Source: Candidatus Gottesmanbacteria bacterium (GTDB lineage: Bacteria > Patescibacteriota > Microgenomatia > UBA10105 > UBA927). Taken from it: a stretch of 64,000 bases of DNA. A program made the translations under genes and the position numbers. Below the pieces are notes generated by a model that saw only the letters and a list, made by a program, of their open reading frames with translations, had not been told where the DNA came from and did not search any database. The stretch covers positions 190,189-254,188 of the forward strand of contig JAUXTO010000013.1 in the NCBI GenBank assembly GCA_030679255.1, read 5' to 3'. Below are positions 4,321-57,096 of this stretch, one piece after another (position 1 is the stretch's first letter; every line of letters starts with the position of its first letter).

Positions 4321-4914
4321 TTATTTCCCTTGCTTTTTGCCAACCACACCCCGTCTCATGATGAGCATGATGCTAAAAAGTGCGTTTGCAAGAGCCCATG
4401 TCACGGGATAGAGCCATGTAATTATATTGTACTGTTGTAAGGCAAAAATGCTCAGTCCGTGACGGAAAGTGCTTAATGCATACGTAAAAAACGTCTCCGA
4501 GTAGGGCTTATTCCACGATTTTCTAATTGTAGGAATAAATCCGAACATCTCAACGGTGGATATGAGAATGATTGATACCACAGGCTGCTTGGCGACGATC
4601 CATATGAATATAGCGACAAGTGATAGAACAAAAAATACAGTATCTGAACGGGTGACATCCTTTTTTCCGTTACGCAATCCTAAAAAGAATATAAAGAAAG
4701 CGTTCAGAGCAATAATGAGGGTCATCCACGAACCAACTCCCGCTCCTGCGCTTACCTGAAGCGCGAAGGCGATCACTGTCGCCAATCCCCAGATAAACCA
4801 GGAATAGATATGCGGCGTTGTTTTCCCCTTATAAATATCAAGATAATACGGAATATATCCCACGATCGATAAAATCACTGTAATTATGCTGATGACCGTC
4901 TTATAATCCTGCAT
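4321..4914 (-). CDS. integral membrane protein (6 TM; PnuC/PQ-loop-like, uncertain)
   Basis: hydrophobic profile only. Confidence 0.4.
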   Translation of the reverse strand: MQDYKTVISIITVILSIVGYIPYYLDIYKGKTTPHIYSWFIWGLATVIAFALQVSAGAGVGSWMTLIIALNAFFIFFLGLRNGKKDVTRSDTVFFVLSLVAIFIWIVAKQPVVSIILISTVEMFGFIPTIRKSWNKPYSETFFTYALSTFRHGLSIFALQQYNIITWLYPVTWALANALFSIMLIMRRGVVGKKQGK

Positions 4915-12873: not shown

Positions 12874-12907
12874 ATCACAAAATTATGCACGTGCATAATT
12901 TTGTGAT
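12874..12907. repeat. 34-bp perfect palindrome ATCACAAAATTATGCACGTGCATAATTTTGTGAT (copy 1)
   Basis: exact match to copies at 13677 and 41089. Confidence 0.9.
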
Positions 12908-12993: not shown

Positions 12994-13662
12994 TCAAACT
13001 CCAAAATACTCACGATATGAAGCATCATCTTCAAGTTTGGTTACGAGAAGATATTTCACCATGGAACCCACCGCGTAATACGAACGCAAAAATTCTACTT
13101 CATCATGACACGGGTATGGATAGAGATAGACACTCTCCTGCATCTGATAAAACCCCATCGTTTTAAGTGCATCCCGAATAACTGACTGTACGCTACGATC
13201 TCGAGCGGGGATGTCATAGATAACCACGCGCCAATTCCCATCCCAACTAGTTGGTTTTTTCACTTCTAACTGATCAAGAGAATATTTGAGAATCTTCGTT
13301 TTTCCTTCCCGTGTAATGGTGACTACATCCTGTCCGTCTGAATGAGAGTACTGTATGAGTTTCTGTAATTCAAGACGTTTCAATGACTGCCGAAGATACC
13401 CTCTGTTAAATCGCTTCCAACGATCTGGCTCATAGGAAAATGATGACGAAAAGAACGCTTTCCCAAGGGTACCTGCGACATTGGGCGCTATAAACGCGGT
13501 GGCAATCGTCGCGCCCATTCCTAAATATGTGAGGATGTGTTTAACCGAAGCAAACTTTTTCTCGCGATCCTCGTGCTGGTACCGTTCAAAAAGATACGAA
13601 GCAGTCTTTTGAAACTGTTTTTCAGTAAACGATGATTCTTTGACGAAATTCCTCTTCGTCAT
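12994..13662 (-). CDS. PaaX-like transcriptional regulator (N-terminal winged helix, C-terminal Cas2-fold PaaX_C domain)
   Basis: LRQSLKRLELQKLI...VTITREGK wHTH; WRVVIYDIPARDRSV...GFYQMQESVYL PaaX_C-like. Confidence 0.55.
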   Translation of the reverse strand: MTKRNFVKESSFTEKQFQKTASYLFERYQHEDREKKFASVKHILTYLGMGATIATAFIAPNVAGTLGKAFFSSSFSYEPDRWKRFNRGYLRQSLKRLELQKLIQYSHSDGQDVVTITREGKTKILKYSLDQLEVKKPTSWDGNWRVVIYDIPARDRSVQSVIRDALKTMGFYQMQESVYLYPYPCHDEVEFLRSYYAVGSMVKYLLVTKLEDDASYREYFGV

Positions 13663-13676
13663 ATCTCCTTCAGCAT

Positions 13677-13710
13677 ATCACAAAATTATGCACGTGCATA
13701 ATTTTGTGAT
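13677..13710. repeat. 34-bp perfect palindrome (copy 2), 15 bp upstream of PaaX-like start
   Basis: exact repeat. Confidence 0.9.
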
Positions 13711-16986: not shown

Positions 16987-18435
16987 ATGAAACCCGTACG
17001 TACGCGTATCGCGCCATCACCTACCGGCGAAAATCTCCACATTGGCAATGCCTATACGGCGCTTATCAACTACGTCGTTGCGAGACAAAACAACGGACAA
17101 TTCATTATCCGCATCGAAGACACAGACCGGACGCGGTTTGTAGAAGGATCAGAGACACGGATACTTGAGTCTCTCTCTTGGCTCGGCATCCCCCACGACG
17201 AAGGGCCGGATAACGGTGGCCCTTTTACTCCCTACAGGCAATCAGACCGCCTCGCTATCTACAAACAATATGCTGAAGAGTTAGTCAAAAAAGACCATGC
17301 CTACTACTGTTTCTGCACACCGGAACGCCTCAGCGCAATGAGGAAAGATCAGGAAGCACGGCATGAGGCGCCGAAGTATGATGGACACTGTAGAAAAGTC
17401 GAAAGTCGAAAGTCGCCTGCCCGCAATGCTACGCAAAGCGTTGCAGGCGGGAAAGTCGAAAGTGAAAAATATGTTATAAGACTCAAGGTTCCGGAAGAAG
17501 GGACGACAACATTCACCGATCTCATCCGGGGGGAGATTTCTTTTGAAAACAAGCTCATTGATGATCAGGTCATCCTCAAATCCGACGGGTATCCGACGTA
17601 TCACCTGGGGGTCGTCGTTGATGATCACCTCATGGAGATATCTCATATCATCCGCGGCGAAGAATGGATTTCCTCAACGCCAAAACACATCCTTCTCTAT
17701 AAATTTTTTGGGTGGGAGCCGCCGATCTATGCCCACATGCCGCTTCTGCGAAACCCGGATAAAAGCAAACTCTCAAAGAGAAAAAACCCGGTATGGGTGT
17801 CCTGGTACAAAGAGCAGGGATTTTTGCCTGAAGCCGTCGTCAATTATCTGGCAACGATTGCCTGGACGCATCCCGATGGAAAAGAATTATTTACGATTCT
17901 GGAAATGATACGCGTGTTTGATCTGAAAAAAATCCAAACCACGGCGCCTGTTTTTGATCTAGAAAAATTACGATGGATGAATGGAGAGTATCTAAGGCGA
18001 AGTCAAAAGTCACCTGCCCGCAATGCTACGCAAAGCGTTGCAGGCGGGAAAGTCAAAAGTCAAATCTTTGATTTTTATCATGGTAAATACGATGAAGCCA
18101 TAATAGAAAAAACTCTCTCTCTCGTAATTGAACGGATAAAAACACTGGGGGAATATGAGATGATGGCAGGATTTTTCTTTGAGAGACCTAAAGTATTCGA
18201 GCGGCCAATCAATAAAAAATTATTAACCATTGCCCAGGAAACCCTCGAAACCTGTATTTGGAATCATGACGCGATGGAAAAAGCTATACGGGAAGCGGCA
18301 GATAAGGCCAAAATGAAGGCAAAGGACGTATTTATGGAGCTTCGCGTGGCCGTCACCGGTAAAACCGTCGGACCACCACTCCTCGAGTCATTAGAACTAT
18401 TGGGAAAAGAGGAAACACTTACCCGTCTTTCTTAA
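16987..18435 (+). CDS. gltX: glutamyl-tRNA synthetase
   Basis: PSPTGENLHIGNAYTAL (HIGH) and KLSKR (KMSKS) motifs; two internal identical 14-aa segments KSPARNATQSVAGGKV. Confidence 0.9.
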   Translation: MKPVRTRIAPSPTGENLHIGNAYTALINYVVARQNNGQFIIRIEDTDRTRFVEGSETRILESLSWLGIPHDEGPDNGGPFTPYRQSDRLAIYKQYAEELVKKDHAYYCFCTPERLSAMRKDQEARHEAPKYDGHCRKVESRKSPARNATQSVAGGKVESEKYVIRLKVPEEGTTTFTDLIRGEISFENKLIDDQVILKSDGYPTYHLGVVVDDHLMEISHIIRGEEWISSTPKHILLYKFFGWEPPIYAHMPLLRNPDKSKLSKRKNPVWVSWYKEQGFLPEAVVNYLATIAWTHPDGKELFTILEMIRVFDLKKIQTTAPVFDLEKLRWMNGEYLRRSQKSPARNATQSVAGGKVKSQIFDFYHGKYDEAIIEKTLSLVIERIKTLGEYEMMAGFFFERPKVFERPINKKLLTIAQETLETCIWNHDAMEKAIREAADKAKMKAKDVFMELRVAVTGKTVGPPLLESLELLGKEETLTRLS

Positions 18436-24763: not shown

Positions 24764-24895
24764 GATGGCTCGTTAGTGAACAAATTCTTATTTGTGAGCT
24801 TACGAGCCGATCAATCCGCCAGCAATCGCAGCACGAGCCGCGCTACGAATAGTAGGTAAGGCGAGTGCTTAGATGCGGCGGATTATGGAGGAAAT

Positions 24896-33615: not shown

Positions 33616-33810
33616 AATATTTTATTTACGCTTGCCCGCCGCAACTTTGAGTATTATTAAAAACTTACGGAGGATCCTCCCGATCTTTCCATTCGCCTTA
33701 CCTACTATTCGTAGCGCGGCTCATGGAGCGATCTTGGGAGGACGTAAGAAACAGTAATCCTCACAAATATAGTTCGGAAACTGTTTCTAACGAAGGAGGT
33801 GAAATAAATT

Positions 33811-33954
33811 ATGGCAAGCATGTATTGTGTAAAATGTCGCGCAAAGAGAGAAGACCCAAGTGCCGTCAAAGTGACAATGAAAAACGGAAAACCGGCAATG
33901 AAAGGGAAATGTCCAACGTGTGGAACCGGAATGTACAAAATCGGAGCCGCATAA
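33811..33954 (+). CDS. DUF5679-type small zinc-ribbon protein (47 aa)
   Basis: MASMYCVKCRAKRED...KGKCPTCGTGMYKIG; GGAGGTG SD 8 nt upstream; not in ORF track (<60 aa). Confidence 0.6.
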   Translation: MASMYCVKCRAKREDPSAVKVTMKNGKPAMKGKCPTCGTGMYKIGAA

Positions 33955-37094: not shown

Positions 37095-37514
37095 ATTGGT
37101 ATCCGGACGCTCGAGGGGATGGAAGACGAAAGCCTTTAATATCCCTTAGGAAAGTCCAGACAGCAGAATGCAGGGGAAGGAGTGTAAGCTCCTTGTCCGT
37201 CAGCTGACGGACCAGGTGTCCCGGTGTCGAAAGGCAACGGGAACGAGTCCTGAATTGACAGGATGAGAGAGCCACAGAGACGATCATCAACCTTTAGCCT
37301 AACGGGCTTGGTCGATGGGTGAAACGATGGTAATCCCACCCGCTGCAACCGGCGAATACACCGCCACGACGACGCATTCCGGAACCTCGCGACCTGCGGG
37401 GTGCGGTGACAAGTTTACGGGCATCGCGTCAAACGCGATTTGCCACGTTTGACGTGGCACTAGAGAAATGAGCGACTAAAAACAGAATCTGGCTTATGAG
37501 ATGCCAGTGTGCAC
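37091..37514 (+). ncRNA. rnpB: RNase P RNA (bacterial type)
   Basis: GGAAAGTCCAGAC (P4 5' strand), GGTAATCCCACCCGCTGCAACCGGCGAATA (P10/11-12 junction), ACAGAATCTGGCTTATGAG (P4 3' strand); 13-bp P1 between 37091-37103 and 37500-37512; extended -10 TGgTATAAT at 37075-37083. Confidence 0.6.
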
Positions 37515-41088: not shown

Positions 41089-41122
41089 ATCACAAAATTA
41101 TGCACGTGCATAATTTTGTGAT
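41089..41122. repeat. 34-bp perfect palindrome (copy 3), 20 bp upstream of miaA start
   Basis: exact repeat. Confidence 0.9.
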
Positions 41123-53166: not shown

Positions 53167-53271
53167 AATGATCTCCTTATGAGGCAGGAATATACTATTG
53201 AAGAATTTATGCAATTCTTACACAATAAATGATAGAATACAAGAGATCAACAAATCTTCATGAAAATTTGG

Positions 53272-53330
53272 TCGGGGTGTGGCGTAATTGGTAGCGGCAC
53301 GTCAAACGTGCCAGTCGCGTTTGACGCGAC
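53272..53330 (+). other. tRNA-like 5' fragment (acceptor start CGGGGTG, D-loop TAATTGGTAG, CAA hairpin, long-arm hairpin; no T-arm)
   Basis: manual inspection; does not fold as a complete tRNA. Confidence 0.3.
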
Positions 53331-53358
53331 GCATTCGGTTGGCACATGGAAATTCTGT

Positions 53359-53431
53359 CGGGGTGTAGCTCAGTTGGTAGAGCACACGGCTGGGGGTCGT
53401 GTGGTCGCAGGTTCAAATCCTGTCACCCCGA
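53359..53431 (+). tRNA. tRNA-Pro (anticodon GGG)
   Basis: manual fold: acceptor CGGGGTG/CACCCCG + A73, D GCTC/GAGC, anticodon loop CTGGGGG, T-loop TTCAAAT; CCA not encoded. Confidence 0.8.
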
Positions 53432-53641
53432 CTGAATTTCCAGTGTAAAGGGTTCGAGCGGTTGGCAGTTTCCCGCGGAGCGGGATTAACTGACAGTAAA
53501 TACTCGCTATGGCTCGTAAACTGTCAGTTGAACAAGTCTGCCCACCCCGACCAAAAACTGATCTCTATCTGGGTTGTTATGACACACACCTCAAAGACCG
53601 ATATCAATATTTAAATTACAAATATACTGAAATTATCGCTT

Positions 53642-54718
53642 ATGCGTAAGTTTATTGTTTTTATAACTGGCTTAGTATTAGTAATAATTGGGTTAGTTAC
53701 TCTTTTTGAAGCAGTTATTATTCCGATGGTAATGCCATATACACTATTTTTAATAATTACTGGAATTTATCTCATAAAAAAATATTCATACCGTGTGGCA
53801 GTTGGCATCATCATTCTAGTCGTAATAATCGGAGCGTATGTTTATTATATGAGCAATCCAAATATAGGAGCATATAAAGGAGTAAAAATAATTAAAACTG
53901 ATCTAGGACCAAAAATAGAAGAAAACCAAGCGACAAATGGGACGGGGGTATATGTTATTCCAGATTATATCAACGGATTACATATATTACTTACACGTGG
54001 AAATAGACTGTACGGCATAAATAGTAATACCGGATACAAAAAAACAAATGTTGTTAGTACGATATTAGAAATACAAGACGAAGGATATATTGGAAACAAT
54101 ATCGGAAAATTTATGTTAGGGTGTGATCAACTATCCCACACATGTTTTATTCTTGATTTTAGATATAACTATTCTTTAAATTATGCTAATCTACCATATT
54201 ATTCTCCAGTAAAAATTATTAGTTACAATTATTTTACGCAAATATTCTCAACGATATACACATTTCAATCAGGACTACAAGAACCCCGACTCATAAACAA
54301 AATAATAAAATACCCAAGCGCCGCGACAATAATTATTAATTCCGACTTGGATAATTTATATTATAACGTTATTTTCCAAACCGCACAGGTGAACAACATT
54401 AACAAAATTCCCGATTTACAAGGAAATACAGAATTAACATTTTTAGTAAAGGATCAAAACTATTTCACAAATAATAAATATCCTGGTCTTATCTCTGGAG
54501 ATTCTACATGGACAGTTGTGACGAAATCAGAATGTGCATCAGGTGGTATGGGCGGATGTGACAATGTTGTCTCAATTTTTAAAAATGACAACCTTAAAAA
54601 TGTATTCAACTGTCATAACTGTTCCGTTTTCTATATGGGCAAGTTACAAAATAAGCTATTATTATTGATTCAAGAAAATTTAAAATTTAAGATAGGAGAA
54701 ATTGAGGAACAAGAGTAA
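53642..54718 (+). CDS. hypothetical membrane protein, strongly AT-rich
   Basis: ~3 N-terminal TM segments, Asn/Tyr/Ile-rich; compositionally foreign. Confidence 0.45.
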   Translation: MRKFIVFITGLVLVIIGLVTLFEAVIIPMVMPYTLFLIITGIYLIKKYSYRVAVGIIILVVIIGAYVYYMSNPNIGAYKGVKIIKTDLGPKIEENQATNGTGVYVIPDYINGLHILLTRGNRLYGINSNTGYKKTNVVSTILEIQDEGYIGNNIGKFMLGCDQLSHTCFILDFRYNYSLNYANLPYYSPVKIISYNYFTQIFSTIYTFQSGLQEPRLINKIIKYPSAATIIINSDLDNLYYNVIFQTAQVNNINKIPDLQGNTELTFLVKDQNYFTNNKYPGLISGDSTWTVVTKSECASGGMGGCDNVVSIFKNDNLKNVFNCHNCSVFYMGKLQNKLLLLIQENLKFKIGEIEEQE

Positions 54719-54892
54719 TAAAAATCGCGCGCGGGGCGTCAAACGTCCCTGCCACATTTGACTGTGGTGCAAAAAAAGAATCCGGAAGCGCGGCGGGCCG
54801 ACCCTTCGACAAGCTCAGTGTAAAGGCGCCGCCCAGACAATGCGAGGCCCGCGAAGATGGCCGACCGCGCCCTGCAGTAGCTTTAGCGGAGG

Positions 54893-55003
54893 AGGGGCTA
54901 ACAGCTTTGAAATTCGATTCTAACTTTTTGATATAACCCGACTTAAAAACTGCATTAATTTGGATTGTTCTGACAATGTTTTCAAGGACCGTCCCTAAAA
55001 ATA
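54893..55003 (+). repeat. direct repeat, left copy (~93% identical to 56338-56453)
   Basis: alignment by eye; on minus strand it ends in RIFRDGP-stop. Confidence 0.8.
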
Positions 55004-55188
55004 CGAAATATTTACTTTTACGATAAACGAAATATCAAACCGTTTTTGAATATACTATATTTATGAAACATGATTAGTTGTCAAGAATCAAAAAAACACC
55101 GCTTAACAAGCTAATTTGTATATAAATTTTGATTTGAATAGTAAAATATGCTACTATAGCTATGGTCGCGATGCAAGTCGCGCCCATC

Positions 55189-55229
55189 AAAAACGGATCT
55201 CTACTGGAAATAGGTGAGATCCTTTTTTG
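55189..55229 (-). terminator. bidirectional terminator GGATCTC-loop-GAGATCC with A5/T6 flanks
   Basis: overlaps DUF3800 stop codon. Confidence 0.55.
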
Positions 55230-55983
55230 TAACTTCGGGGAAAAATTTGAGACCAATCCCGTCTACGATATTCCCTTTGCGGTGTAATTTGGGATGCGTG
55301 ACGTCGTGATACCGCCAGTAATCCTCTTTTTTCTTGTTGTACTCAAACACATGGTACACAGGATAGCAGTAAAGATCAGTAATCTGGATGCCTACTGTTT
55401 TGTCGGATGTGGAAAATAAAACGCGCTCAATAATATTAGGGCACTTTTGCCAAAACCCATTTTCATTCCAACGAAGCAAGCTATGAATGCGATCAAGTTC
55501 CGGTCCTATATAGCTTTTTTCCACTTGACCCTCACGTGGATCAATAATACAAATGCCGAATGCATTTTGTTCTTTAAGATACATTTGGAATCGCTCCATC
55601 AAGAATATATAGGCAATCTCGTACGGATTTTGCGATGGATACTGTTTCCAATACCCAACTTTATCAATCACGACAGAAAAAACTGTCACTGGGATTTTTT
55701 TAAGAAAAGTAGCAACGTCTACTTCTAGCTCATCATATTTTTGTCGATCGTTGAGCTTAATCGGTGAAGACTGTGCAAGATCTGGATTGGCATATCGAAG
55801 AAAATTTGATTTGAACTCAACTTCAGGATTTTGATAGTAACTCAGTTTAATGTCACGAAACGAACTTTCGATAGCCACTTTATCACTCTCATTGATTACG
55901 CAACCTGTAAGGACTAAAAATTTCTTTCCTTTTTGTGAAAGAGAAATCGTATCGCCGGACTCATCAATATACATGATCTGCAT
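55201..55983 (-). CDS. DUF3800 family protein
   Basis: MQIMYIDESGD N-terminus characteristic of DUF3800; GAGGG SD; start trimmed from the longer ORF. Confidence 0.55.
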   Translation of the reverse strand: MQIMYIDESGDTISLSQKGKKFLVLTGCVINESDKVAIESSFRDIKLSYYQNPEVEFKSNFLRYANPDLAQSSPIKLNDRQKYDELEVDVATFLKKIPVTVFSVVIDKVGYWKQYPSQNPYEIAYIFLMERFQMYLKEQNAFGICIIDPREGQVEKSYIGPELDRIHSLLRWNENGFWQKCPNIIERVLFSTSDKTVGIQITDLYCYPVYHVFEYNKKKEDYWRYHDVTHPKLHRKGNIVDGIGLKFFPEVTKKDLTYFQ

Positions 55984-56337
55984 AATTACCCTCAAGTATA
56001 CCACCAAATTTTTGCGATAAAAATGGCGGCTCTGCCGACCCCGCCACTCGGGTGGTACCTTCCAAAAAAAGATCAACCGTGGAAAAGACAACTGAGTTGC
56101 CCGACGCTTCGTATGGGCGGCTCTTTCGCACAAAGGTGGGGTCGCCGCCCTGCCTGCCGGCAGGCAGGCATCCTTTTTGAGCCGGGTGGGTGGGCTGATT
56201 GGAATCAGGACAGACTGATTTTGTGTTATTATAAATCTTACCGCACGCGAATCCGCCAGCAGGCAGATGAACGGAACGCGCGCTAAAAAAACGGAATCAA
56301 GGCCGCGTTTACCCTGAGCGAAGTCGAGGGGAAGCGA

Positions 56338-56453
56338 CCGAACTAATAGTTTTGAAATTCGGTTCTAACTTTTTGATATAACCCGACTTAAAAACTGCAT
56401 TAATTTGGATTGTTCTGACGCTCTTTTCAAGGACCATCCCTAAAATAGGGACA
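56338..56453 (+). repeat. direct repeat, right copy; contains the 3' end of the HAD-IB gene
   Basis: see left copy. Confidence 0.8.
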
Positions 56454-57089
56454 CTTCTCAACAATTTTGTTCAATACTTGAAACAAATCCCCAGAGTTCA
56501 AACATTGGTCAGAATAAATTTTTAAATTATCATCAGCATTCAATGCAATTCTATATCCTACTTTTTCAAAGATGGGAATATCTGATCTTGAATCTCCAAC
56601 TGCAATTATTTCAGACATCTCGATATTTTTTTCTTTACTTAGTTTTTCAAGAATAAGTACCTTATCGCCACCTGTAAGAACATTAAGCATTCTGCCTGTA
56701 TGAATTCCGTTAATAAACTCATGTTCTGAACCACTGATAAAATCGAATCCAAAACTTTTTTTAAAATATTCACTTGCGAATATTGGACCTATGGAAGTAA
56801 TGCCAACCATAAATCCTACCTGTTTTAATTTATCAACGGTTTCTTTTATATTACCCATCCTTGGTATTTCCGAAGTCCATTCATCAAATTGTTTTTTACT
56901 TGTATCCTTTAGTATTTTTGCGTATCTATTAGCAATCTCATAATCATCAATCTTATGATTTTTGTACAGATTTTCTAAATCTATTGCTTTATCCTCAACC
57001 CCAAGTTTTTTAACATAATACTGAAGACACGTTGTTCCCATAGTAAGCGTACCATCCAGATCAAATGAAACTAATTTATAGTTTCTCAT
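56427..57089 (-). CDS. HAD-IB hydrolase (phosphoserine-phosphatase-like)
   Basis: LVSFDLDGTLT motif I, GDSRSD motif IV; AT-rich. Confidence 0.6.
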   Translation of the reverse strand: MRNYKLVSFDLDGTLTMGTTCLQYYVKKLGVEDKAIDLENLYKNHKIDDYEIANRYAKILKDTSKKQFDEWTSEIPRMGNIKETVDKLKQVGFMVGITSIGPIFASEYFKKSFGFDFISGSEHEFINGIHTGRMLNVLTGGDKVLILEKLSKEKNIEMSEIIAVGDSRSDIPIFEKVGYRIALNADDNLKIYSDQCLNSGDLFQVLNKIVEKCPYFRDGP

Positions 57090-57096
57090 GCTTAAT

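Follow-up and report, generated by a model that had tools for sequence, protein, structure and literature searches.

A twin hairpin of about 36 nt occurs at three places in the window (the whole 64-kb stretch of DNA that was analysed), namely inside the RNase P RNA gene rnpB, inside a dead tRNA-Pro gene and in the spacer behind a stop codon, and at each of them it is present as a clean insertion relative to homologous sequences of relatives. We put it at about an even chance that this unit is a small portable module resembling REP/REPIN elements, which the RNase P RNA tolerates at the site of its helix P18. The neighbouring proteins of the window point to uncultured Gottesmanbacteria/Microgenomates, Patescibacteria (CPR), and the features that bear on the twin hairpins are as follows.

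Copy 1, about 37423-37459, plus strand: ATCGCG-tcaaa-CGCGAT t TGCCACG-tttga-CGTGGCA, a 36-nt module in rnpB; its first hairpin (H1) occupies 37423-37439 with the loop UCAAA and its second (H2) 37441-37459 with the loop UUUGA.
Copy 2, 53296-53330, minus strand: GGCACG-tcaaa-CGTGCC a GTCGCG-tttga-CGCGAC, 35 nt (letters as on the plus strand).
Copy 3, 54733-54768, plus strand: GGGGCG-tcaaa-CGTCCC tg CCACA-tttgac-TGTGG t, 36 nt.
rnpB, 37096-37511, plus strand: a divergent bacterial class A gene matching the whole of Rfam model RF00010 (1-367) with 56.8 bits, E=1.5e-16.
Decayed second-type tRNA-Pro(GGG), 53273-53345, plus strand: copy 2 sits in the 3' strand of its D stem.
Intact tRNA-Pro(GGG), 53359-53432, plus strand: found by ARAGORN and by Rfam (66.3 bits), 28 nt downstream of copy 2.
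ORF358, 53642-54718, plus strand: 358 aa, between the intact tRNA-Pro and copy 3, given for context only.

The coordinates and sequences given in a preliminary description for three twin hairpins, the loops of which are TCAAA and TTTGA, proved to be as stated, and the window contains exactly three of them. The module consists of two GC-rich hairpins with stems of 5-8 bp, in units of 17-19 nt that are joined by a linker of 1-3 nt. All copies contain the core CGTCAAACG followed at a constant spacing by its reverse complement CGTTTGACG, and the outer stems of the two units differ; as the hairpin tops CG-TCAAA-CG and CG-TTTGA-CG are inversions of each other, the unit reads nearly alike on both strands. 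The 9-mer CGTCAAACG was found six times on both strands, compared to 0.69 expected occurrences, a count reached by none of 100 shuffles, and GTCAAA followed by TTTGAC within 40 nt exists at exactly three places in the window with a spacing of 13-14 nt each. The twin hairpin is the minimum-energy fold of all three copies (z-scores of -4.2, -3.8, and -1.5 for copies 1, 2, and 3, respectively). A covariance model, such as had been proposed, matched these three places alone when run with filters off on the full 64-kb window, the next match scoring 10 bits (E=1.3); copy 2 scored 48.3 bits on the minus and 44.9 bits on the plus strand, and copy 3 scored 33.4 bits on the plus and 16.4 bits on the minus strand. 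An independent Logan assembly, made from run SRR13727518, contains all three copies as well. No further copy was found in an extra 5.7 kb of the same genome (~70 kb covered in all), nor, apart from the rnpB inserts, in 673 kb of relatives' sequence, which for the most part covers the 5-10 kb surrounding each rnpB, and adjacent hairpins in general are not enriched in the window (10 observed vs 3-10 in shuffles).

We give next to no credence to the reading in which the resemblance of the three copies is accidental or copy 2 represents two arms, anticodon and variable, left over from a class II tRNA: although the loops GUCAAAC and GUUUGAC resemble anticodon loops (CAA, UUG), and the D-arm upstream of copy 2 initially looked Leu-like, the statistics of the 9-mer, the spacing and the covariance model rule out chance, and the fragment belongs to class I, being a tRNA-Pro(GGG) whose variable loop measures 5 nt and whose D stem is interrupted by the module. 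Copy 2 as the arms of a class II tRNA-Leu(CAA) was likewise rejected, its flanks being those of a second-type tRNA-Pro(GGG).

Comparison of the copies revealed that copies 1 and 3 have one orientation and copy 2 the opposite one. Copies 1 and 2 are identical at 31 of 36 positions when read inverted, compared to 24 of 36 in direct orientation; BLAST aligned copy 2 with 37424-37456 in inverted orientation (91% over 33 nt), and repeat finding paired the two copies over 23 nt with 87% complementarity. Read in this way, they differ in two stem pairs: from copy 1 to copy 2, the foot of H1 has G-C in place of A-T, and H2 has G-C in place of C-G. Both differences are compensated, and uncompensated stem differences are absent; if four stem substitutions were made at random, all 12 pairs would remain Watson-Crick with p ~7e-4 (~7 in 10,000 trials). 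Copy 3 has the same orientation as copy 1 (26 of 37 positions identical) and its hairpins are intact after several two-sided changes, H1 of this copy containing one G-U pair that is workable on the plus strand only. The stems had previously been described as different yet paired. Pairing is indeed kept in all copies, but the stems of copies 1 and 2 differ by two pairs and not wholly, and since copy 2 nearly reproduces the reverse complement of copy 1, their apparently different stems are largely an effect of orientation. The lesson is that compensatory differences between palindromic repeats need to be read in the correct orientation.

The gene that harbours copy 1 scores below the RF00010 gathering score of 100 bits, and the conserved rnpB motifs AGGAAAGUCC and ACAGAAUCUGGCUUA are found in it. 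A score of this size is as expected, since CPR rnpB genes are described, in the sections available of Lui et al. 2021 (PMC8172020), as falling under Rfam thresholds and needing lowered ones; the same sections describe some helices of these RNAs as missing, P18 included, and others as extended or extra. Copy 1 is located between the 3' strand of P15 (..UUUACGGGC) and J18/2 (CUAGAGAAAUG), where the Rfam alignment places the 36 nt as two hairpins instead of the 23-nt P18 block of the model, and no single P18 hairpin is formed. Of the correspondence to P17/P18 that had been suggested for this copy, the P18 position is thus confirmed by the Rfam alignment, but the element is not a canonical P18. 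H2 together with CUAGA is similar to the base of P18 in E. coli; H2 may therefore be a remnant of P18 or even the original P18, in which case rnpB may be the source of the module and not its target. In the mechanism that we propose, copy 1 would be transcribed within the RNase P RNA and fold as two helices at the P18 junction, where the module would be optional for the ribozyme, being tolerated, and perhaps useful, at the former P18 site.

The same junction was compared among relatives, using 54 loci obtained from a metagenome scan with a clade-specific rnpB 21-mer and two further rnpB genes from a genome collection, which adjoin the same ABC-F gene; the contigs of the closest relatives (ABC-F 90% identical) both begin just 3' of the rnpB junction and so fall outside this comparison. 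Only 2-3 nt are present at the junction in 39 of the 50 complete rnpB genes (e.g. GGGC-ATT-AGAG), including that of locus L023, the nearest insert-less gene to the window rnpB (GGGC-CT-AGAG). Inserts were found in 11 of the 50, with lengths of 35-63 nt if counted within the alignment block and of 38-66 nt if counted from one junction anchor to the other, and most rnpB inserts are similar twin hairpins, as in the following loci.

L002, rnpB insert: TCCCG-cgtac-CGGGA / GCCACG-tttga-CGTGGC.
L032, rnpB insert: CCGCG-ttaaa-CGCGG / GGCGCG-ttaaa-CGCGCC.
L038, rnpB insert (incomplete gene): CCGAG-tctaa-CTCGG / GCCAAG-tttga-CTTGGC.
L055, rnpB insert: CCCCGC-taa-GCGGGG / GTCGAGC-tca-GCTCGAC.

H2 is identical between the window and L002, the loops of L038 are nearly the same as those of the window, and L058, L039, and L068 have longer inserts with hairpins nested in the loops. 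In total, the rnpB of this clade contains at least eight variable helix-insertion sites. The structural constraint on the hairpins that the preliminary description had postulated is borne out by the compensated differences between the copies as well as by the wider rnpB alignment, in which both sides have changed in 10 of 15 pairs and 91% of the cells are paired, compared to 73% in shuffles and 31-50% with slid partners; moreover, RNAalifold, unaided, predicted the same two helices. Distances over 283 well-aligned core columns, together with a simple neighbour-joining tree, showed that the nearest neighbour of an insert-bearing rnpB is insert-less in every case, with L002 differing by 11% from the insert-less L023 vs 15% from the window gene. 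The patchy inserts and the uniform empty junctions of 2-3 nt imply, as far as the sequences can tell, that the history of rnpB would comprise either at least seven precise losses or repeated gains at the same junction, both of which would need a precise process.

All three copies are insertions of 35-36 nt relative to homologous empty sequences, and the flank is duplicated at none of them. The insertion points are GC^AC for copy 1 and GC^GC for both copy 2 and copy 3, with the flanks GGGC/ACTA, TAGC/GCAT, and GCGC/GCAA, respectively; over these three sites the 5' flanks (GGGC, TAGC or ATGC if read inverted, and GCGC) have only GC in common. The earlier view that the loci reflect selection on structure rather than a recent duplication was therefore wrong in spirit, since copies 2 and 3 are duplicates that have been inserted, the homologous sites of relatives being without them.

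The tRNA-Pro(GGG) gene that contains copy 2 has decayed, lacking ~15 nt of the anticodon arm and everything past the 5' strand of the T stem (the 3' third), and neither ARAGORN nor Rfam made a call for this fragment. It matches the 5' part of an intact tRNA-Pro(GGG) in L061, L085, and L090 (CGGGGTGTGGCGcAATTGGcTAGCGCAyTCGC...GGTTGgca); this intact second-type gene is situated at the recA locus in L085 and L090 and is present also in L061. The flanks of copy 2, TAGC^...^GCATTCG, are contiguous as TAGCGCATTCGC in the intact gene of L090, L061, and L085, the window reading ..AATTGGTAGC (35 nt) GCATTCGG.. where the relatives read ..AATTGGCTAGCGCAyTCGC... In L082, L083, L086, and L087, the RecA proteins of which are 93-97% identical, an intact tRNA-Pro is found beside recA, but the spacer between the two contains neither the fragment nor the module. 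The string GACGCATTC adjoins both copy 1 and copy 2; beside copy 2 it is tRNA-Pro sequence, and it was rejected as a part of the module.

Copy 3 starts 15 nt past the stop codon of ORF358, in the 3' untranslated spacer, and constitutes a clean 36-nt indel compared to L082 at AAAATCGCGCGC^GCAAAAAAA, the window having AAAATCGCGCGC (36 nt) GCAAAAAAAGAATCCGGAAGCG and L082 having AAAATCGCGCGCGCAAAAAAATAACGGAAGCG. It is also absent after the ORF358 homologue in L099, the only homologue with usable context. ORF358 has no Pfam or PHROG match and only three matching proteins among 5.8 billion; it was rejected as the cargo or enzyme of the module, as it is an orphan whose homologue in L099-L101 is without the module. 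A structured RNA extending across copy 3 and the GC-rich stretch 54780-54900 was rejected as well (fold z-score of -0.3, no Rfam match). The bare inverted repeat had six matches in IMG/VR, roughly the chance number by a rough estimate, and none of them is a twin hairpin, on which grounds a phage or viral origin was rejected. Scans for promoters and terminators in the surroundings of copies 2 and 3 gave no signal above chance. The age of these two copies is loosely bounded, as even the close relatives are only ~82% identical in recA DNA, and the argument that their age is far below that of their divergence from copy 1 was dropped because the recA of L082, a supposedly close relative, is just 82% identical in DNA.

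A comparable arrangement was found with another insert. L051 and L028 contain a different two-hairpin insert of 66 nt at the same rnpB junction, and in L051 a second copy, sharing CACAAAGGGCCGTAATCCCAA...GGGAAcGAGCCCTT, is located 2.7 kb off, directly after the stop codon of a conserved zinc-ribbon gene of 48 aa; the equivalent spot is empty in the window. This module had no BLAST match in the loci of other relatives. Sharing between the P18 junction of rnpB and 3' untranslated spacers is thus not unique to the window genome, the case carrying an ascertainment bias in that the search was made with rnpB inserts only.

If the twin hairpin is a REP/REPIN-like module, it would have been inserted at two further genome sites, a dead tRNA-Pro gene and a post-stop spacer, at GC^GC and without target-site duplication. 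Its movement or copying may have taken place in the form of folded single-stranded DNA and been catalysed by an enzyme whose gene lies elsewhere, probably of the Y1/HUH type as for REP and IS200/IS605 derivatives, and the integrity of the hairpins would then be kept because folded copies alone propagate. In favour of mobility, one unit with constant boundaries is found in three contexts, the stems are kept up by compensatory change in all copies, those outside rnpB included, and L051 provides an independent parallel; furthermore, insertion in either orientation is as expected for a dyad-symmetric element. On the other hand, there are three copies only in ~70 kb of genome, a domain scan of the 38 window ORFs revealed no transposase of any kind, nor did the precomputed annotation of overlapping Logan contigs, and the module ends are without a GTAG/CGTC tag, CGTC being present only across the stem-loop border. 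The target preference is derived from three sites only, and perfect small palindromes can be kept without selection by template-switch correction. Judging from H2 of L002 and the loops of L038, the rnpB copy looks vertically inherited in a sub-clade, and its presence or absence among rnpB genes may reflect repeated loss. Copies 2 and 3, separated by just 1.4 kb, share a hypervariable interval, and imported DNA could have brought them in.

Several of these points would also fit a native, vertically inherited P18 with an extra helix, an expansion since lost by most relatives; copies 2 and 3 would then be one-off patches from rnpB without any mobile family, made by template switching at GC microhomology during repair or replication in a break-prone hypervariable region. 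We consider this explanation unlikely, but a serious one. The rnpB inserts are homologous between genomes and evolve by covariation, with an identical H2 in L002, and the numerous helix-insertion sites of the clade (at least eight) agree with what the available sections of PMC8172020 describe for CPR; the relatives' loci contain no extra copies and the window no transposase, a 2-nt GC is present at every left junction, and the recA-to-S9 interval of relatives encodes HNH, GIY-YIG and recombinase genes. However, random templated patches would be unlikely to reuse the exact module boundaries twice or to preserve both hairpins through compensated changes, L051 shows the same pattern with an unrelated insert, and at least seven independent and always precise losses from rnpB would be needed. 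A quite different function, which we hold to be very improbable, is that of a double-stranded DNA operator, CGTCAAACG-N9/10-CGTTTGACG, for a dimeric regulator such as a damage-response repressor upstream of recA. The constant spacing of the 9-bp inverted half-sites and the location of copy 2 ~130-165 nt upstream of the recA start would suit such an operator, whereas one copy within rnpB and another behind a stop codon would not, and every half-site forms the middle of a compensated palindrome of its own, for which an operator has no need. In addition, the recA upstream regions of relatives are without the module and share another conserved motif, and the matches in viral contigs are to the bare inverted repeat, at chance level, and not to twin hairpins.

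The loops had also been described as conserved and as a possible kissing pair, and neither proposal agrees with the relatives. Their rnpB loops read CGTAC/TTTGA, TTAAA/TTAAA, TCTAA/TTTGA, or TAA/TCA, or contain nested hairpins, and full loop-loop complementarity is found in the window genome only among the related rnpB genes. An intramolecular kissing pair, selected as a tertiary contact of the RNase P RNA, is thus barely credible in our estimate, even though the window loops are perfectly complementary over 5 nt (9 nt including the closing pairs) and L038 and L032 have complementarity at four of the five loop positions. Two of these five positions are complementary trivially, U being the first and A the last base of both loops, the L002 loops are CGUAC/UUUGA, nested loop hairpins are found in L058, L039, and L068, and 39 of the 50 rnpB genes are without the region altogether. 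From the known geometry of kissing complexes, a linker of 1-3 nt would be unable to span a coaxial one, and for copy 1 the twin fold is favoured over the competing 9-bp helix (-20.1 vs -17.9 kcal/mol). The complementarity of the loops derives from the dyad symmetry of the module and not from a conserved intramolecular contact. In the kissing systems ColE1 RNA I/RNA II, HIV-1 DIS, and phi29 pRNA, hairpin loops are perfectly complementary, and those of the module are so too, but in contrast to these systems their complementarity does not covary in homologues, and since pairing within one molecule is hindered sterically, it would have to occur between molecules. The mutual complementarity of the two loops would let any two copies pair hand in hand, and the module might be a self-complementary tag by which the RNase P RNA docks to the leader of pre-tRNA-Pro, to the 3' end of the ORF358 mRNA, or to a second RNase P RNA. 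The duplex of copy 1 RNA with plus-strand RNA of copy 2 is predicted at -61.5 kcal/mol vs -41.8 kcal/mol for the separate folds, and a plus-strand transcript of copy 2 would be nearly full antisense to the copy in RNase P RNA; the site at which RNase P would cleave tRNA-Pro follows 28 nt downstream of the end of copy 2, and the same loops are found in all three copies while the stems vary. Pairing in trans is nevertheless very improbable, as related rnpB genes do not conserve the complementarity of the loops, relatives have neither copy 2 nor copy 3, copy 2 lies in a dead gene with promoter and terminator signals no higher than chance, and the pattern is seen in one genome only. If true, the bacterium would have a built-in guide recruiting or sequestering RNase P, and the L051 insert would be a second, independently evolved tag common to RNase P RNA and a 3' UTR.

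REPs, to which the preferred reading of a portable module compares the twin hairpin, are described in the available sections of three sources as palindromes of 20-40 bp, often paired in opposite orientation, that are located mostly downstream of ORFs and sometimes within genes (PMC3733652; PMC3116915; PMC3337134). Similar to REP, BIME, and REPIN elements, the module is built of small GC-rich palindromic units (~17 nt each, 36 nt for the doublet), its two units are in inverted orientation in all copies, it is sited just downstream of ORFs and occasionally within genes, where it is plausibly transcribed, and it shows no target duplication and a structure kept by compensatory change, the traits of siting, insertion and structure being those that the same sections report (PMC3733652; PMC3116915; PMC3337134). 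In contrast, the definition of a REP given in the available text of PMC3733652 includes an unpaired GTAG or CGTC at one end of the unit, which the module does not have, and REPs are present in tens to hundreds of copies per genome compared to three in 64 kb. REP/REPIN elements have a cognate RAYT (Y1 transposase), whereas none was found among the window ORFs, with ~70 kb of genome covered. Unlike REPs, one copy of the module is inside a catalytic RNA gene, and unlike the tagged REPs, its host has a reduced CPR genome, a type of host that is absent from the taxa named in the available text of PMC3733652.

Other small elements share fewer traits with the module. A classical MITE has terminal inverted repeats and a target-site duplication, whereas the module is without a duplicated flank at all three sites. 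The attC site of integrons is an imperfect palindrome of 57-141 nt with R''-L''/L'-R' boxes, compared to 36 nt for the module, the GTTTGAC of which does not fit the attC core GTTRRRY; neither a cassette array, the covariance model matching three copies only, nor an integrase was found in the window. PATEs undergo precise insertion and excision as single-stranded DNA beside a short target. Being derived from IS200/IS605, they resemble the module in having end hairpins, no terminal inverted repeats and no target duplication, according to the sections available of PMC6006769. They are, however, longer and asymmetric, with one active strand, and insert 3' of a defined tetra- or pentanucleotide, whereas the sites of the module share GC only; no TnpA was seen among the window ORFs. 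With respect to repeats inside rnpB, the STRR sequences, which are said to be tandem heptamer repeats in helix P12, reportedly extend the helix without destroying RNase P function. As relayed in the available text of PMC2858038, these genome-wide short repeats are located inside the rnpB gene of cyanobacteria (Vioque 1997, Nucleic Acids Res 25:3471), and the module is similar to them in being a dispersed genomic repeat within rnpB, but differs in being a two-hairpin unit at the P18 junction. The CPR RNase P RNAs of PMC8172020 resemble the window gene and its relatives in their sub-threshold scores and in having P18 missing and helices extended or extra; the sections available of that source deal with lost and extended helices, and neither a unit of two hairpins at the P18 junction nor a copy of any rnpB segment at another place in the genome is mentioned there.

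In conclusion, the finding opens no long-standing question, but if the twin hairpin is a portable module, it would be a very small, tag-less REP-like repeat in CPR, for which we found no report of such elements, and its presence would explain part of the tendency of CPR rnpB genes to fall under Rfam thresholds. It would also represent a visible case, on a small scale, of helix accretion in RNase P, and would show how structured RNAs in streamlined CPR genomes gain helices, with ready-made hairpin modules entering tolerant ribozyme junctions and later being kept by covariation.

Among related genomes and metagenomes, the core of the RNase P RNA gene (rnpB), taken from CR-I to CR-V and compared across loci L002-L081 with window positions 37147-37496 as the reference, ranged from 281 to 495 nt within the clade, and hairpin insertions were found at no fewer than eight sites in these loci. 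An apparent tandem duplication of approximately 32 nt was present in the P2-P4 interval of L002 rnpB, and several of the inserts near P15-P17 carried CCUAAG or CCUGAG, which resemble a tetraloop receptor.

A second family of two-hairpin modules was identified in L051, a relative with its own insert at the P18 junction of rnpB, at the following positions:

L051 7553-7615, two-hairpin module
L051 about 4560-4700, minus strand, rnpB carrying a two-hairpin module

This family is common to the P18 junction of L051 rnpB and a 3' untranslated spacer, and its modules share an asymmetric internal loop that is conserved (GGGCC-GUAAU-CCC / GGG-AACGA-GCCC); this loop might be a motif for protein binding or for a tertiary contact. 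The P18 junction also lies close to the ends of two short contigs of the closest relatives, L102 and L103 (ABC-F gene 90% identical), both of which start within the 3' end of rnpB (positions 1-20 of each contig), beyond the junction by between a few bases and roughly 25 nt. This shared start point may be a coincidence, or it may reflect an assembly break at a repeat.

At the recA locus, tRNA-Pro(GGG) occurs as two sequence types that alternate between relatives (window 53359-53432 versus L061 8805-8879, L085, and L090), and the window holds one type intact (53359-53432) and the other as a decayed copy. The sequence TTGTATTCTAyCATTyWTTGTGTAArAAT upstream of recA is conserved in the window (53215-53250) and in relatives L082 to L086, and is a candidate recA promoter or operator. 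The interval from recA/tRNA-Pro to the gene for ribosomal protein S9 is hypervariable among Gottesmanbacteria (window 53200-59000 compared to L082, L085-L088, and L090), GC content is low across it in the window, and its content was as follows:

Window: orphan ORF, DUF3800, HAD, and EamA
One or more relatives: PEMT, SNase, and ABC1
One or more relatives: HNH repeat and 23S rRNA IVS protein
One or more relatives: GIY-YIG
One or more relatives: serine recombinase

The DUF3800 gene lies between two copies of a direct repeat (54898-55000 and 56343-56445) that are 103 nt or more in length and 93% identical; within this repeat, TTGAAATTCGGTTCTAACTTTTTGATATAAC looks like a promoter. The repeat is part of a larger unit of around 190 nt that lies 3' of stop codons, in relatives as well (L082 3977-4064; L085 3547-3604).

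Repeat finding identified further elements in the window, listed here with two associated genes:

12874-12907, 13677-13710, and 41089-41122, perfect 34-nt palindrome ATCACAAAATTATGCACGTGCATAATTTTGTGAT, three copies
12994-13662, minus strand, gene with a PaaX central domain
17403-17467 and 18000-18064, direct-repeat pair
24825-24883 and 33674-33732, 59-nt inverted repeat, arms 83% complementary
33797-33943, plus strand, conserved 48-aa zinc-ribbon gene
60526-60600 and 63218-63292, direct-repeat pair

The two direct-repeat pairs have units of 65-75 nt, one containing a GC-rich hairpin between (AAAGTC)n flanks and the other (TATCAGC)n and, after it, an inverted segment. An Rfam search with the 59-nt inverted repeat returned no family matches; its second arm is contained in the leader of the zinc-ribbon gene, and its core, TAGCGCGGCTCATGG, is also present immediately 5' of L002 rnpB. 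Since the second copy of the palindrome is located 15 nt upstream of the PaaX-domain gene, it is probably the operator of this PaaX-domain regulator.
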